From: a bacterium
GTDB taxonomy: Bacteria; UBA8248
Assembly (NCBI GenBank): GCA_965213625.1
Contig: CBDBZU010000004.1
Span: 64,001 to 128,000 of the forward strand
Direction: 5' to 3'
DNA length: 64,000 nt
Under the pieces are notes generated by a model. That model worked only from the letters and a program-made list of their open reading frames with translations. It was not told where the DNA came from and did no database searches. Both the position numbers and the translations under genes were made by a program. Shown in pieces: positions 6,188 through 13,760 of the stretch. Every line of letters begins with the position of its first letter. Position 1 is the first letter of the stretch.

Positions 6188-7235
6188 GTCAGTGCCTGCC
6201 AACAAACGCCGGCACATTCCATACTTATCCGATAGCACCGGGAAAAGAAGCGTTCGGGAGCTTCAGCTTCCCTCTTAGGAGAGCGTCGTTATCGTTTGTC
6301 GGGTAGGGCACTGGCGCGCGCACCTTTAGGCGGAGGGTTTCCAGCCCTGCCCTTTCGGTTCCAGGGTGGGGTCACAGTTCCGCCTTGAGCCACGTTTCCA
6401 GCCGCCCCCCCTAAAATTCCGTACGTCGAGTTTTCCTCGGTACGGCTTCCAGCAACAGGCACCTCCCAGTTTGGAGTGGAGTATTCCGCGGGAACACCGG
6501 GGTTTAAGACCGACCCTGCCATACCCCTCGGCGGGTCCAACGTTTACTCCGCCCTCAGGCTTCACCATGTGCAGAGCGCTTTCCCCCGCCTCTGTGTGCG
6601 GGCTGCCCGCCACGGTGTCGCCACCTGTGCCCAGAGGTCCTCGCTCCGGGTGGGTTGTGTTCTCCCACCCTTCATCGCTTGGCGACCTCGTCCGCCAGTC
6701 TGGAGGTCTCCGTCTCACTTCCCGGCGCCCCGGTTATAAAGACGGTCTTCGACATTCACAGGGTCATCCTGTCATGACCTCCACACCTTCCGGACTTTCA
6801 CTGCGCTACTTTCGAGTATTGCCGCCTTCAATACGCCGGGAGCCCCGGTTCGTGCGCCTCAGTTTCTTCTGCACCGGCACTGGCCATCGGTTAGGAGGGA
6901 GACCCTTGGCAACTCCATCTACCCCGCAAATCAGCTTCACGCGGGAAGTCCTTGTTTCGACGCTTCATCCGTTCACTTTCGTTACGGTCCTACTCGTTGC
7001 TTGCCTGCCGGGCTGATCGCACACGAGCGGCACGGCGGCCCCTCTGTACCCCGAGGCTTTTACGTCCGGGCTTCCAGAGCGCCGGGTCGCCCCGTACGTC
7101 TGCTGGATATGACTACGGCGCCAAACTGAGAATTGCGCCGGCGGGACTTTCACCCGCTAGTACCGCAGTTAGTCTCGCTGCACCCCTCCCGCAGGACTTT
7201 CACCAGCTGCACTGACACCAGTTAGCCTGGCGCAC
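6188..7235 (-). mobile_element. Group II intron B: 5' domain-I fragment (7235-7184 plus 6297-~6188), interrupted by intron A and truncated
   Basis: Minus strand begins GTGCGCCAGGCTAACTGGTGTCAGTGCAGCTGGTGAAAGTCCTGCGGGAGGG, a canonical GUGCG start. No DV/DVI belonging to it is found. Confidence 0.7.
6298..7183 (-). mobile_element. Group II intron A, ORF-less, 886 nt, apparently full-length ribozyme
   Basis: 5' GTGCAGCGAG. DV GAAGCCGTACCGAGGAAAACTCGACGTACGGAATT (about 6415-6449, AGC triad). DVI ends CCCTACCCGAC. EBS1 loop CCCUCC (6894-6899) is complementary to the 5' exon GGAGGG. Confidence 0.88.
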
Positions 7236-7562
7236 ACCCCATCGCTTGGTCGGGTAGGAGGGGGCATTGCTGCGCCCCTCCCCCCACAGACCCGAGCGTG
7301 CGCGATTGACACACTCGGTTCCTCACCTGACAGGTTCGCTCAAGGGGTTGTCACCCTTGCTCCGCAGGTCGAGGCATTCCTCGCCTGTTTGGCTATCCAC
7401 TGCTGTTTCGTGTACGTGTTGGTGGAACTCAGAGTTTCCTCCAGCGTTTCCCATCAGTGGCTCTGTACAGATGACGCCCCGCTTCCCTCCAGTGGGTCCC
7501 GGTGGCCACGGTTCCCCGCCTTCAGCGGTACTATCAGGGCGCTACGACTTCCTGCCCTTCTC

Positions 7563-7867
7563 TAATCGGGACGAGCAAGTCAAGTTCCTCTGCCCTGTTT
7601 TTTCCAGCTCTGTTCCGCCTTTGGTTTTAGACGATACTCCATGGGGGTCTCGCTTCTCTACGTGATCGGCACCCGGTCCGGGGCCGTCAACAGGATGGGA
7701 TCGGAGAACGAGGTGGAACAATCTCGCATACGTCCTCGCACCGTCACCGACGGAGCGGAACGGGGCAGGAAGCGAACTCACCTCGTCCCTCGTCCCCACG
7801 GGAGCATCCTCCGCCAGATCGGAAGCTGCCGTAGTATTCGGATTCTTCTCCTCTTGGATTCCCAAGG
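7563..7867 (-). ncRNA. Putative bridge RNA / seekRNA of the IS110 element (exact ends unknown)
   Basis: Four ordered guide-like segments: 7763-7772 (target left flank), 7722-7729 (target right flank), 7694-7701 (donor left), 7655-7660 (donor right). Strand polarity alternates as in bridge RNAs. Confidence 0.75.
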
Positions 7868-8908
7868 TCAGGCGGCTACGTCATCCACGCCGTCGCGTTT
7901 CCAGCGGAACTCGCTGCCATCCATCCATATGCGGTGCATGATGACGCCGAGCCGGCGGGCAAGCGCAACCTTCGCGCGCGCCTTGCCGCGACGCTTCGCC
8001 ACACCCATCGCCCAGGCTTTCAGCCATGACCACCGCGTCGTGCGCCCGAGCAAGGCGTTGGCGGCTTCGTAGAGCGCCGCGCGCATCATCGCGTCGCCGC
8101 ACTTGGAGATTCTTCCCGTTCGGTCGACCTCTCCGGATTGCCATTTGCGAGGCGCAAGCCCGAAGTGCGCGCCCACCGAGCGCGAACGAGCAAAACGCGA
8201 TGGCACGTCGACGCTCGCCCGGAAGGTGAGCGCCGTCACCGGACCCACGCCGGGGACCGTCATCAGGCGACGGCAGACCGGGTCGACGCGCACCGCCTCC
8301 AGCATCATCCTGTGCAGCCGGACGTATTCCGCCAGCAACGCCGCTCGCGCCCGCAGCATCGGCTTCACCAGGCCCGCCAGCGCCGGGCGCTCCGCGACCA
8401 GTCCAAGCACCCGCGCCTCCAGCCCGCGGCGGGTGACCTTGCCCATCTTCAGCCCGAAGTTGCGCAGCGTGCCCCGGATGTTGGCCTCGGCGTCGCACAA
8501 CTGCTTCAGCATGAACCTGCGGTTGGCGAGGAGCATTCGTTTCTCCTGGCTCGACACCGTCTTCACGTGCACCGGGCGAATCAGGTTCGCGCGAACCAGC
8601 TGGGCGATCCCGCGCGCGTCGTCACGGTCGCTCTTGTTCACCGTCGCAGATAGTATGGCCTTCAACTGCCGCGTCTCGGCGCAAACCACCGGGAGCCCGG
8701 CCTCGGCCAGGCCGTCATGGAGCCACTGCGACAGCGGCCCCGCCTCAAGACAGATGCGCGTCACGCCGAAGTCCAGCCCGGTGAAGAACGCCGCGAGGGC
8801 CGCGGGTTCGCTCGCGACCTTCGCCTCCCGGACGATCCCGCCGTCCACGTCCACCACGCACACGCTCGTCCACTCCAACGACACGTCGAGTCCTGCAAAG
8901 TAGTTCAT
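7868..8908 (-). CDS. IS110-family DEDD recombinase/transposase, intact
   Basis: MNYFAGLDVS, CLEAG, KSDRDDA (DEDD), VPGVGPVTA, FGLAPRKWQSG (catalytic Ser), GRISKCGD. AGGAG RBS. Confidence 0.95.
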   Translation of the reverse strand: MNYFAGLDVSLEWTSVCVVDVDGGIVREAKVASEPAALAAFFTGLDFGVTRICLEAGPLSQWLHDGLAEAGLPVVCAETRQLKAILSATVNKSDRDDARGIAQLVRANLIRPVHVKTVSSQEKRMLLANRRFMLKQLCDAEANIRGTLRNFGLKMGKVTRRGLEARVLGLVAERPALAGLVKPMLRARAALLAEYVRLHRMMLEAVRVDPVCRRLMTVPGVGPVTALTFRASVDVPSRFARSRSVGAHFGLAPRKWQSGEVDRTGRISKCGDAMMRAALYEAANALLGRTTRWSWLKAWAMGVAKRRGKARAKVALARRLGVIMHRIWMDGSEFRWKRDGVDDVAA

Positions 8909-9634
8909 GACTGCTCCTCCTGCGGGCGCGTAGAGACCGGACCATCCCGGCCTCGCCTCGATCATATGACAGAGGAACATCCCCTACACGCGGTAGTTCG
9001 AGGGCCGACCCGATTATCCCATCTCGCATCTCCTTCGGCTTATTGTTTTCACCAGCCGGTTCCGCGGGCGCCTGCCGGGTTCGTGTCCGCCATGGGGCGC
9101 TCCCGCCGCCGTGCAAGCCCGGCGACGGACCGGGGTCTGGATTTTCATGCTGGCCGTCCCCTTTCCAGCGTTCTTGCCCACGGGCAAGAGCAGGATCTCC
9201 CAGGTTCCCTGGCGACCCATCCCCGTAACTTTGCGCCGGTCCACGACCCCGGACGACCCGTTGCGCCTCGCCGATAGCGGCGCTTCCGGTGCTGCCCCCA
9301 CACGATTAACAATGAAGGCGTCGTCGATTCACCGATTTCGAGGCTTACCCCACCGCTTCGTCACCTGCTGTCTACGCTTCACGACGCACGTTGCCGCACG
9401 CCATGCAAGACTCGCTTCCGGCTGGCTGGCTTCGCCTTTGCCGGGCGGGAGTCGAACCCGCTGGGTCGCTACGAGAGGTTTCAGGTCATGGCGTCCTCCT
9501 CTCCAGGGCTTAGCCTGGCGCAATAAACGTTCGGCGACAGGGTGATGGCGCCGGGTTTACTCATTCCGGACTTAAGCAAAAGGTTCTTGTTGAGGGGCTG
9601 GTAACATCATCCGGCATGTGGTAATCATGTCGGC

Positions 9635-11982
9635 ATGAAGATTTGCACGGAAGGTGTCGAGACGAAGCCGGCGTTGGTCGAGAGGCCGAATGAGCCATGG
9701 CCTCATTCCCCTGATTTGTCCACAACCGCAGAGGCGTACTGGCGTTCGCAGTACGAGCGCGAGCGTGCGCGCGCGGAGGCGGCGGAGGCGCGCTGCGAGG
9801 AGTTGCGGTGGGCGGAAGTGGATTCGCGCGCCCGTGCGGGTAGGCTGAAGCGGCAGTTCGACGTCTGCCGGAAGAAGCTCGAGGAGGCCGCCGGTGAGGC
9901 GAAGGAAGCCCGCCGCGCGGCGAAGGACGCGCTGTCGCTCAAGACGGAAGTGGAGCGGCTGGAGAAGCTGCTTGCGGAAGCAGGGGTCGAGCCGCGCAAG
10001 CGCAGCCCGCTCATGTCGCTGCGCATGGAGGTCGTCCGGCTTCGCAAGGAGCTCTCGGGCGTGCCGTCGCCGGGGGAGGCGGGGCGGGTGCGCAAGGCCC
10101 TGGAGGAGCGCAGGGAGACGATTCATGCCCTGCGCAAGGAGGTCGGCCGGCGGGAGAAGGAGGTCGCCCGGCTGGAGGAGCGACTGGACCGGGAGAAGCA
10201 GAAGTCGGCGGCTCACAAAGAGACCATCCGGGGCCTGGACGAGGAGGCCATCGGGCTCTACAGGAAGTTGCGGCGATTGCGCGACCAGGCGGAGGTGGTC
10301 GAGTCGTTGTCCGCGGAGGTTTACCGTCTTAAAGTCTCCCTGGGAGCCGCAGGCATCGCGACCGAACGACTGAAGGCGCGGTTGTTGCGCGCAATGGAGG
10401 CGGCGCGCTCGAGGTCGCCGTCCCGTGCGGACGAGGAACTGCGCAAGGCCCTGGGGAGGTCGCGGCGCCAGAAGACGGCGCTCGGGTCCCTGTCCAGGGA
10501 GAATGCGCGGCTTCGCCGGGCGCTACGCAAGTCAGAGACCCGCCGGGCGCGTCTGGAAGCCGAGCTCGCGAAGCTTCGCGCCACGGGAGTGGTGCTGGCG
10601 AAGAGGCTGTTCGGGCGCAAGAGCGAGCGGCAGGAGAAGCCGCGCTCGGAGCGCAGGCGCGGCGGGCAGCCCGGCGCCCGGGGCCATGGCCGCACCCCTC
10701 GTCCCGCGCTCGAGGAGAGGACGGAAGTTCGCAACCCGCCGCCCGCGTCTGCGCCTGTTGCGGGCAGCCCTACGTGGCCAACGGCGCGCGTGTATCGAGC
10801 CTCGTCGAGATCGAGGTCTCGGCCCACAAGCGCGTCATCCGCCGTCCGCGGTGGCGCCGGGGGTGCGGTTGCGCGTCGTCTCCCATGGAGGTGTCGGCGC
10901 CGCCCGCGCCGCGCCTGTTCGCGGGCACGTCCTTCGGGACGAGCGTATGGGCGCGCTTCCTGTTCGAGCGCTACGCCTGCTTCCGCCCGCTGCGCCGGGT
11001 TGCCGCGTGGCTCTCCGACCAGGGGCTTACCGTCTCGGCGGGGACGCTGGGTGACAGCGCGCACCGCTTCACGCCCCTGTTCGAGCCGCTGGCCGGGGCG
11101 ATCCTCGCCCGCCAGAACGAGTCTACGCTGCGCCACGGGGACGAGACGACCTGGCGGATACAGTCGCTTCGCGAGCAGGGGCGATCGAGCCGCGCCTGGC
11201 TGTGGACATCGGTAAGCACGGACTCCGTCTACTTCCACGTCGACCCCTCGCGGGGCGCCGGGGTCGCGATGAAGCTGTTCGGCGCGGCCGGCCGCCATAC
11301 GGTCCTCGTCTGCGACCGCTACAGCGCCTACAAGAAGCTGGCGCGCGAACTCGACGGCGCCGTAATCCTATCCTTCTGTTGGAGCCACCAAAGAAGAACC
11401 TTTATCGACAGCGCGGCCGGCGAGGCGCGCCTGACGCCGTGGTGCGAGAGATGGATCGGGCGGATCGCCTTGCTCTACCGCCTGAACGAGGCGCGCCTGG
11501 CCCGTTACGACTCAGGTCTCGAACACCAGGACGCGGCGTTCGACGCGGCGCACGACGAATTGAAGAAGGCGCTCGAGGGCCTGTTCGCGCAGGCCCGACG
11601 CGAACTGGCCGCCCTGTCGGCGCAGGCGCCCGAGGGCAAGGCGCTTCGCTCGCTGCTGAACCACCGCGAGGGGCTGAGCGTCTTCCTCGAGCGCCCCTGG
11701 GTGCCGACAGATAATAACGCCATTGAGAGAGTGCTCAGGGGTCCCGTGATCGGGAGGCGGCTCTCGTTCGGCTCCGACAGCGAGGCCGGCACCGGGTTCA
11801 CGGCGATGATGTACTCCGTCCTCGGAACGCTCTCATCGAACGGCATCGACCCGCTCCGCTGGCTCGATGCATGGCTCACCGCCTGCGCGCAGAACGGCGG
11901 CCGGGCGCCCGGGGACCTCTCCGCATGGCTGCCCTGGTCGATGAATGCGGAGCGCAGGCGCGCCCTCACGGCGCCGGGATGA
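9635..11982 (+). pseudogene. IS66 TnpC transposase with long N-terminal coiled coil, frameshifted near 10740
   Basis: LFGRKSE and GQPGARGHGR, then in the second frame CACCGQPY zinc finger, HGDETTW, LVCDRYSAY, CWSHQRR, DNNAIERVLR. Confidence 0.9.
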
Positions 11983-11986
11983 CGCC

Positions 11987-12859
11987 GTGATCGAGTGCCG
12001 CTACTACGGACGCGACTTCACGACTGATGAGATGACGCTGCTGCGCGCGCTGATCACCGGCCCTCCCGCGCTCAATCGCAACGTGCTCTCCAAGGAGTTC
12101 TGCCGGCGCATCGGCTGGTTCAAGCCCGACGGCGGACTCAAGGACATGATGGCCCGGGTGACCATGCTCGCCATGCACAGAGACGGCCTGATCACGCTTC
12201 CCCCGCCGAAGCGCCCGCGGCACCCGGCCCGGCCGATCGTCTTCGGGCCAGACACCGAAGCGCCTCTCATCCCGGCGCCCGAGACCCTCGACGAGGTCCG
12301 TCCCCTCGGGATGCGCATCGTCGTGCGTGGAACCCGCGAGGGAAGGCTCTGGAACGAGTTCGTCGCCCGCTACCACTACCTCGGCTACAAGACCCTCGTC
12401 GGCGCCCAGATGCGCTACGCCGTACACGACCGCGACGGCAGGCCCCTCGCCATGCTCGGCTTCTCCACCGCCGCGTGGAAGCTCGCCCCGCGCGATGCCT
12501 TCATCGGCTGGACGCCCAGGCTGCGCGAGAAGAACCTTCCCCTCGTGGTCGACAACCCGAGGTTCCTCATCCTGCCATAGATCAAAATCCCCAACCTCGG
12601 CTCGCATCTCCTCGCCATCCTTCGCAGGCGACTGCCCGACGACTGGACCGAGCGCTATGGCACGACCCCCGTCCTCATCGAGACCTTCGTCGAGACGCCA
12701 CGCTACACCGGCGCCGTCTACAGGGCTTCAGGATGGATTCACGTCGGAACCACACAGGGACGCGGACGCTACGACAGGTACAAACGCCACGACAAACCCA
12801 AAAAGGATGTCTGGCTACGTCCCCTCCGCAACAACTGGAAGAAAGTCCTCAACCGCTGA
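11987..12859 (+). pseudogene. DUF4338 (DruA-like) protein with in-frame TAG at 12578-12580
   Basis: YYGRDFT...CRRIGW...LWNEFVARYHYLGY...RDAFIGW...NPRFLILP*IKIPNLGS...W.ERYG..PVLIETFVE...GAVYRASGWIHVGTTQGRGRYD. The TAG replaces an expected Trp. Confidence 0.85.
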
Positions 12860-13292
12860 AACAACTCCCATCACCCTGTCGCCGAACGGTTACCTACCCG
12901 GCCCCCGACAGGCGCACCCTTGGATACGCAGGCGTTGTAACGAATCCGCTTGCGGTTTGATTACGGGTTATGGAGGGTGGATCTCGGAGACTCGGTAAAA
13001 GAAAATGATATCAATATGTTAGATGGATATGTGTCCAATCGAAACTAGTGGATGCACCTGATTTCTCGAAAAACCCCGTGAATTTGTCTAATTTTATCGA
13101 TATTTCCAGATATTATTATTTGCATATTTCATGATCTGCGCCTGGACGAATCGCTCACCCGCCTCCATCGGTCCGCGCCCGCTCCATCTCCTGAAAAACC
13201 AATGGCCGACGGACGGCCTTCTCAGCATACCCCATCGCCCCGAAAATCCCGCCACGGCAAATGCGGGTCGAACCCGACCGAGGAGGTCAGTT

Positions 13293-13406
13293 CCGACCGA
13301 GAAGGGAGGAACTGACCGACTGAGAAGGGAGGAACTGACCGACCGGGGAGGGAGGAACTGACCGACTGAGAAGGGAGGAACTGACCGACCGGGGAGGGAG
13401 GAACTG
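13293..13406. repeat. 23-bp tandem repeat, about 5 copies
   Basis: Units G(A/G)G(A/G)AGGGAGGAACTGACCGAC(T/C) at 13299, 13322, 13345, 13368 and 13391 (partial). Confidence 0.92.
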
Positions 13407-13760
13407 CTTCGCCGGCCGACCGGGCAGGTCAATCGTGGCTGGGGAAGGAGCGGTTGTTGTTTGCGCGCACCGACCCAAACGATCGGCCCTTCCAACTTAC
13501 AGGCGCTCCCCTCCTCTCCCTTCACCGCGAATGCCCTCCCCGGTTCCAGGCCGGACCACCCACTCCATACGCATGAAACGTGGCGGCGCTCTCCGGTGAA
13601 GCCGCATCAAACGCCCCACCAGATACGATTTTGTCTCACCGAGGCGTTATGTTAGATTCATTCCATCATCTGGATTTAAAAGTTCGGCGAAAGTAATTCC
13701 GGGAGAAGACGAACTTCACGTCACCGCGCAGAAGCAGGCGGTGGAAACCCGAGGTTTCAC

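Follow-up and report, generated by a model that had tools for sequence, protein, structure and literature searches.

How does a group II intron come to lie between the first and the second nucleotide of a transposon end, and is this end itself the target? The question is raised by a stretch of 64,000 nucleotides of bacterial DNA, in the following called the window (GTDB lineage Bacteria; UBA8248; assembly GCA_965213625.1, contig CBDBZU010000004.1, positions 64,001 to 128,000 of the forward strand). At positions 7249 to 9523 of the window a group II intron copy of 2275 nt, intron C, resides on the minus strand and interrupts an IS66-family insertion sequence (IS) within its left terminal inverted repeat (TIR). 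An earlier reading, made from the sequence alone, had claimed that the exon-binding sites (EBS) of this intron are directed at the repeat and that the intron homes to transposon ends. Our analysis makes it very likely that intron C is a dead copy of an endonuclease-less group II intron lineage that retrohomes into the tips of IS66-family TIRs. Coordinates without a contig or locus name refer to the window.

The intron and the repeat that it splits

Rfam matches and an intron-free paralogue define the inserted block. The distal part of domain I, which bears the EBS elements, matched RF02005 (group-II-D1D4-6) at 9237-9454 on the minus strand with 132 bits (gathering score 49) and over the complete model (1-225 of 225). 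Domains V and VI together with the 3' splice site were recognized at 7249-7323 on the same strand by RF00029 (D5-D6; 32.4 bits, below the gathering score of 40; E 0.0039; model 1-77 of 77). This full-length match has 7249 as its last base and thus terminates at the boundary defined by the DNA comparison. The assignment to the group II introns in the sequence-only reading was thereby confirmed. In the paralogous IS66 copy without intron, C4:510397-513732 on contig C4 of the same genome (86.8% identity), the left end reads ...CCCATCGCTT-GTAACCATTCGG... (CTT-GTAAC). The same stretch of the window reads ...CCCATCGCTT-G, followed by the 2275 nt of the intron and TAAACGTTCGG.... Because the paralogue shows the uninterrupted site, the inserted block is 7249-9523 and cannot be shifted by one base. 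The RNA of intron C has the ends 5'-UUGCGCC...CCCGAC-3'. Group II introns have the consensus ends 5' GUGYG and 3' AY, and the 3' end ...GAC of intron C fits the latter.

On the plus strand, the first nucleotide of the left TIR (G) is found at 7248, and nucleotides 2-26 follow at 9524-9548 behind the intron. The right TIR, nucleotides 26 to 2, occupies 12868-12892 and forms the inverted-repeat pair with 9524-9548. Both arms are complementary at 24 of 25 positions, or at 25 of 26 when G7248 and C12893 are included; the claim that excision rebuilds a 26-bp TIR with 25 matching positions was reproduced in the new measurement. With intron C removed the TIR begins with GTAA, as it does at three loci of related introns in other genomes (L012, L021, L082). 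Elements of the IS66 family have TIRs starting with GTAA, generate a target-site duplication (TSD) of 8 bp and carry the accessory genes tnpA and tnpB. Intron C thus separates the first from the second nucleotide of the left TIR of an IS66-family element.

Target junctions and exon-binding sites

A blastn search of the same genome recovered, besides intron C, a single intact copy (c2; C4:3545955-3547983, 2029 nt), three 5' fragments (c3, c4, c5) and three or four 3' fragments. At all five distinct 5' junctions the exon resembles a TIR and has TTA as its last bases (window CCATCACCCTGTCGCCGAACGTTTA; c2 CCATCACCCCACGACCGAATGGTTA; c3 and c4 TTATCACCCCTCCGCCGAACCGTTA; c5 ...GACCGCCGCTTA), and all five 3' junctions begin with C. 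A regular-expression scan, sorted by eye on the context ...ATCACC..., yielded 11 distinct TIR-like ends in the genome: in four the 5' end of an intron follows, the right TIR of the window element bears a probable scar, and the other six are unoccupied. The matches C4:21240 and C4:4117325 were identical at an offset of 4,096,085, within the first and last ~20-40 kb of C4; the contig ends probably overlap as those of an untrimmed circular chromosome.

The intron-encoded protein (IEP) of c2 was used as query against the GTDB species-representative genomes. The best 80 of 494 related stretches gave 79 loci (L numbers in the following) with 64-97% identity; intron ends were placed with nhmmer, and 68 junctions were read. 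Thirty of these junctions, from 11 other assemblies, were of the TIR type, with an exon ending in ...CGAACNNTTA or ...ATA, then the intron, then C. The assemblies are metagenome-assembled genomes labelled as two phyla. The +1 base was C in 26 of the 27 readable cases and T in one, which belongs to a head-to-tail tandem in L019; three were unreadable. A second group of 19 junctions lies antisense within the open reading frame (ORF) of a DDE_Tnp_IS66 transposase near residue 202/203, with an exon ...GCCCAGC and A as +1 base in 17. Other targets were found at 18 junctions, and the last one is the second unit of the tandem. The sequence-only reading had expected TIR flanks at the copies of the intron. 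This held for the five junctions of the genome and for 30 of the 68 read in the other assemblies.

An IS66 DDE gene was present within 2.5 kb on the exon side in 14 of the 30 TIR-type junctions, in 11 cases with the intron at the right end (sense, downstream of the DDE gene) and in three at the left end (antisense, as in the window). In L019 and L020 introns occupy both ends of the IS, and in L012, L021 and L082 the IS is complete and its left end free of an intron. Both TIRs of one IS are therefore targets, as had been proposed, and the 30 TIR-type junctions in 11 assemblies, 14 of them beside an IS66 DDE gene, uphold the claim that the lineage homes to IS66 TIR tips. As a separate observation, IS66 ends abut head-to-head with ~6-9 nt between the TIR tips at L029:5425-5445, L008:5425-5450 and C4:519724-519760; in the pairs of L029 and L008 an intron sits in one of the two ends. 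Such pairs could result if the IS preferentially inserted beside its own kind.

The recognition elements were located in domain I. In minus-strand reading the exon positions -7 to -1, ACGUUUA (9524-9530), represent the intron-binding site IBS1, and the positions -14 to -8, UCGCCGA (9531-9537), represent IBS2. EBS1, UAAUCGU (9302-9308, minus strand), is situated in the terminal loop of a hairpin, and EBS2, UCGGUGA (9329-9335, minus strand), in an internal loop of 13 nt that precedes the EBS1 hairpin on its 5' side. An RNAalifold consensus of 20 diverse relatives predicted 28 pairs, 12 of them with compensatory changes. It placed EBS1 in a 10-nt hairpin loop on a covarying stem and EBS2 in the adjacent 13-nt internal loop, in agreement with the Rfam alignment. 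The sites had thus been placed correctly in the earlier reading: the letters and the stated pairings are right, the consensus fold exposes both in loops, and both covary with the exon.

For EBS1 this covariation is pronounced. Paired with its own IBS1, it matched on average at 6.26 of 7 positions (62 introns, 42 distinct combinations), with 3.09 for cross-target pairing and 2.1-2.5 for shifted registers; all 42 combinations pair at at least five positions. The tandem second unit and copies with an interrupted domain I (L019_5424, L040_1282, L052_827, L053_827) are omitted from these values. Among the combinations are TAAGCGT/ACGCTTA, GGTCAAT/ATTGACC, TGTGAGT/ACTCGCA, GTTGGGY/GCCCAGC and CCAGCAT/GTGCTGG. 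The EBS1 variants also track the variants of the TIR: TAAGCGT is found with ACGCTTA, TAATCGT with ACGATTA or ACGGTTA, and TAACTGG with ACAGTTA. The longest helix of EBS2 with its own exon had a mean length of 4.65, with 3.59 in the controls, and compensatory cases were seen in L023 (UCGUU/AACGA), L041 (UCCGUU/AACGGA) and L056 (GCUCU/AGAGC), also in L063 and L074. A candidate for EBS3 is the G at intron position 280 (9244, minus strand), which would pair with the first base of the 3' exon, a C, that is IBS3 and the complement of TIR nucleotide 1 (G7248). This column is complementary to the +1 base in 55 of 57 introns (G:C in 34, U:A in 21). In IIB introns EBS3 is expected near the base of the domain I d stem, and position 9244 is near this base; intron position 280 is likely EBS3.

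A perfect 8-bp TSD brackets G...intron...C in L012 (ACGAGGCG) and L021 (GTGCACGG), two of the three testable cases. Since the TSD encloses this whole arrangement, the IS66-family element transposed normally and contains the intron behind the first nucleotide of its TIR.

Of two rival explanations, the less improbable one regards the intron as unrelated to IS66 as such: it would recognise any short motif of ...CGAACNNTTA followed by C, and IS66 TIRs would be the commonest carriers of it in repeat-rich genomes. In favour of this view, no IS66 DDE gene is present within 2.5 kb at 16 of the 30 junctions of the TIR type. The same holds for the exons of L016, L017, L030 and L036, which are TIR-like only within about -1 to -12. 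The intron is accordingly not strictly confined to IS66 ends. However, 14 of the 30 junctions are at true IS66 ends, and at three of the 16 gene-less ones (L013, L035, L044) as well as at c2 a TIR-like partner in inverted orientation lies 111-122 nt upstream. These sites look like the ends of ~135-bp miniature inverted-repeat transposable elements derived from IS66. For the remaining junctions of the 16 the search for an inverted partner gave best matches of 11-13 of 18, which is background level; these are apparently ectopic sites at which mainly the IBS motif is preserved. Moreover, many exons are TIR-like beyond the IBS region, e.g., with ..CATCNCC.. at about -18 to -26, and the EBS1 variants follow those of the TIR. 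We consider recognition of a motif irrespective of IS66 improbable, and it would differ from homing to TIR tips in emphasis only, as the target is set by EBS-IBS pairing under both views.

The reverse order of events, with IS66 elements inserting beside existing introns or with junctions made by repeat recombination, could draw on the window copy and its 510-kb paralogue, which lack a TSD and have 12 nt of the left flank in common, indicating rearrangement at these loci, but it is hardly credible in view of the 8-bp TSD outside G...intron...C in L012 and L021, of a TIR that is always split between nucleotides 1 and 2, and of an EBS1-exon covariation over more than 10 target types that IS insertion beside an intron does not explain. 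A chance origin of the junctions was rejected on the TSD and covariation evidence.

Homing to IS66 TIR tips has to be weighed against several observations. At the window site itself the EBS1-IBS1 pairing contains one mismatch, U.U at -4, which is the sole TIR position differing between the two ends of the element. The support from EBS2 is modest (4.65 vs 3.59) and its register flexible; the covariation of EBS3 is built on two states, and phylogenetic confounding is possible. The D5-D6 match scores under the Rfam gathering score, and the RNA of intron C begins with UUGCG, with U instead of the canonical G, and departs from the 5' consensus GUGYG. UUGCG is the start in the window and most relatives, UAGCG in some and GUGCG in L063 only. 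The 16 TIR-type junctions without a nearby IS66 DDE gene belong here as well. No 8-bp TSD was found at the window IS66 copy or at the 510-kb paralogue, nor in L082 around G...intron...C. An exon-exon or empty-site joint of c2 was not seen among the assembled contigs of sequencing runs; loose ends 10 nt upstream of the intron in these contigs were further TIR-like 5' exons.

Decay of intron C and of its host element

Comparison with c2 shows how intron C was degraded. Both are 96.8% identical over intron positions 1-502 and 96.7% identical over 1966-2145, and the EBS regions of intron C are identical to those of c2. Across intron positions 502/1969 c2 is contiguous; here intron C holds a single-copy IS110-family element of 1466 bp (7556-9021, minus strand; intron positions 503-1968; boundaries uncertain by ~3 nt), probably inserted in domain IV. 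The sole long ORF within intron C (7868-8980, minus strand) encodes the IS110-family transposase (Pfam DEDD_Tnp_IS110 and Transposase_20; NCBIfam NF033542, 227 bits vs a cut-off of 140) and no reverse transcriptase. In terms of the c2 sequence, the insertion point of the IS110 element is between ...GCGAGA and GCAGGAAG..., and the element has sub-terminal inverted motifs AATCGGG/CCCGATT. At a second place, 7345-7376 on the minus strand, 32 nt replace ~1250 nt of c2. The missing ~1250 nt encode a group II reverse transcriptase (RT)/maturase of 449 aa, so that the domain IV-encoded protein is lost in the window copy and kept in c2. The c2 IEP matched TIGR04416 with 355 bits (cut-off 300), and RVT_1 was the only Pfam domain. 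As only 38 residues follow the TIGR04416 model, an endonuclease domain would not fit.

Intron C is a dead, non-autonomous derivative, deleted in its ORF and interrupted by an IS110 element. In the probable sequence of events ~1250 nt of the RT ORF would have been lost first and the 1466-bp element gained afterwards. The RT/maturase of c2 could in principle act in trans on intron C. ORF-deleted forms with end points like those of intron C exist elsewhere, seen as the L001 joints 6640->7890 (X5) and 6641->7884 (X19, RNA library).

The body of the IS66-family element (9524-12892, plus strand) is decayed as well. The reading frame of its transposase is broken into two overlapping parts (9635-11215 and 10774-11982), and a truncated DruA-like ORF (11945-12580) stops at 211 aa; the Pfam scores are 179 bits for DDE_Tnp_IS66 and 68 bits for DruA. 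In the relative at L012 the transposase is one ORF of 635 aa (NF033517, 256 bits vs a cut-off of 180) and the DruA-like ORF has 329 aa. Neither tnpA nor tnpB was among the L012 ORFs of at least 150 aa, the length down to which ORFs were scanned; family matches there were confined to the transposase and the DruA-like ORF. In this IS66 subgroup the DruA-like ORF (PF14236, formerly DUF4338) is conserved downstream of a single long transposase (window 11945-12858; L012:2360-3349; 14 other loci) and ends ~9 nt before the right TIR. In tblastn it adjoins the DDE gene in at least 12 loci at 72-91% identity. The DruA domain is a signature domain of Druantia, and its presence as passenger or accessory gene of an IS is odd.

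The right end of the element carries a probable scar of a second intron. At 12893-12902 (plus strand) the right TIR is followed by CCTACCCGGC, the last 10 nt of the 3' end of the intron family. The same 10 nt terminate a 94-nt intron 3' remnant at C4:211536-211629, and an 86-nt stretch of the flank beyond 12893-12902 shares 80% identity with the flank of this remnant. If 12893-12902 is an intron scar, 12903 (C) would be the true terminal base of the right TIR, and both ends of the window element were probably hit by introns. The flanks of the element, CATCGCTT on the left and CTACCCGG on the right, or CCCGACAG past the scar, contain no duplication. The 12 nt of left flank that occur at both IS66 copies are 7236-7247 in the window and C4:510385-510396 at the paralogue. 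On the right, 12903-13000 belongs to a dispersed repeat with further copies at C4:219693-219887 (95%) and C4:211623-211708, and five or six tandem repeats of 23 nt (CCGACYGRGRAGGGAGGAACTGA) are located just right of the IS66 element at 13270-13407.

A second group II intron without ORF, intron B, of another class, occupies 6298-7235 on the minus strand and begins 13 nt downstream of the 3' end of intron C. It matched RF02003 with 46.5 bits, under the gathering score of 49, and has the ends 5' GTGCGCC and 3' ...CCCTACCCGAC; its last 170 nt recur with 94.7% identity at C4:1922271-1922441.

Mechanism, lineage and related systems

In group II introns, the DNA site at which reverse splicing takes place is chosen by EBS-IBS pairing. 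For this lineage we infer a retrohoming in which the EBS1 hairpin loop would pair with TIR nucleotides 2-8, the EBS2 internal loop with nucleotides ~9-15 and the G of EBS3 probably with the complement of nucleotide 1, and the intron RNA would reverse splice between TIR nucleotides 1 and 2. Nearly the whole target would then be on the IS side, from TIR nucleotide 2 to ~15 plus the terminal G:C. For this reason any IS copy, whatever its flank, would present an identical, outward-reading site at each of its ends. Endonuclease-less IEPs such as that of RmInt1 are reported to use single-stranded DNA at replication forks (PMC4615759, PMC5894124).

After insertion the transferred-strand end would read ...TTAT and not ...TTAC, with the U of the intron beside ...TTA, and the true terminal base would be 2 kb away. 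The earlier reading had proposed that insertion destroys the cleavage end and would immobilise the IS; such a block of transposition by insertion at the TIR tip is plausible. Splicing could not undo such a block, because the TIRs act as DNA. If the capping of the tip blocks transposition, these introns would be built-in antagonists of IS66 expansion.

The IEP tree (39 distinct rows, quick search, midpoint-rooted for drawing only) needs a single change for the TIR-type label, and 14 of 15 such rows are in one clade with a support of 96% in the SH-like approximate likelihood-ratio test (SH-aLRT); the other, L039, is placed in an unresolved fork. The group in the IS66 ORF forms the other main branch. 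Sister sublineages with other targets (L042-L050, L056-L058) were situated 3-14 nt from the ends of repeated elements. L045-49 are 3 nt from a repeat end, downstream of an ISKra4-like transposase (168 bits, below the cut-off of 205); L042, L043 and L050 are downstream of an IS110 transposase (264 bits), and L056-58 are beside an IS5/IS1182-like transposase (below cut-offs). These sister clades at other IS ends suggest IS termini as a general niche for endonuclease-less introns. A still broader picture is tentative and rather doubtful: the lineage would be widespread, endonuclease-less and an obligate parasite of IS, with sublineages at the termini of at least four kinds of IS, namely IS66, IS110, ISKra4-like and IS5/IS1182-like, and one in the IS66 transposase ORF; its EBS1 would track TIR variants between genomes, the capping of tips would brake IS proliferation, and the intron would ride the IS between many phyla of sponge-type communities.

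Among mobile elements that have the TIR of another transposon as specific target are IS4321 and IS5075 of the IS1111/IS110 group; in their case the site of insertion is the 38-bp TIR of transposons of the Tn21 family. Intron C and its relatives resemble them in this choice of target. In contrast, IS4321 and IS5075 are IS based on a DNA recombinase; they are no retroelements and have no EBS-IBS pairing between RNA and DNA.

Group II introns inside IS are known from Sr.md.I1, which sits in an IS66 transposase ORF of Sinorhizobium medicae, and from RmInt1 in ISRm2011-2 (PMC4615759, PMC5894124). The sister clade represented by 19 of the 68 junctions, antisense in the DDE_Tnp_IS66 ORF at ~residue 202/203, is of this kind, and a plasmid copy in Bradyrhizobium adjoins an annotated IS66 tnpB. 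As described there, Sr.md.I1 and RmInt1 interrupt a transposase gene, whereas intron C splits the TIR. In the literature searched, with subscription journals and supplements outside the scope, no description of a group II intron in IS66 TIRs was found.

The closest parallel is RmInt2 of Sinorhizobium meliloti GR4, for which retrohoming into the inverted repeats of ISRm17 was demonstrated experimentally (Martinez-Rodriguez et al. 2014, PMC4615759). The same authors argued that each IS provides two sites, of which one is on the lagging strand, and reported head-to-tail copies; ISRm17 is an element of the ISNCY family (PMC10194956). Both introns have the two inverted repeats of an IS as target, with two sites per IS on opposite strands, an IEP without endonuclease domain, and a target set by EBS-IBS pairing with mismatches tolerated. 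Both also form tandem copies, here one: in L019:3397-7450 two introns follow each other head-to-tail with no exon base between, which matches the tandem products of RmInt2. At this joint EBS3 (G) could wobble-pair with the first U of the intron itself. The differences concern host and lineage. The host is an IS66 element here and an ISNCY element (ISRm17) there; the insertion here is at the extreme tip of the TIR, between nucleotides 1 and 2; and EBS3 and IBS3 form a G-C pair here and a U-A pair in RmInt2. The introns are of different lineages: the class D C-terminal motif LX3AX3PXLF[V/A]HW, as quoted in PMC4615759, is missing from the C-terminus of the c2 IEP as judged by eye, the best plasmid relatives of this IEP are Bradyrhizobium ltrA genes (72%), and Sinorhizobium is absent among its 30 best plasmid matches (up to 8 further records exceed 60% identity).

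The lineage of intron C represents a second, independent and much broader case of a retroelement that targets the end repeats of DNA transposons, with 30 junctions in 11 assemblies in addition to this genome, and natural covariation defines its EBS1, EBS2 and probable EBS3. It is no new class of mechanism: the strategy has already been published for RmInt2 and ISRm17, and it is encountered here in another intron lineage and at another IS family.

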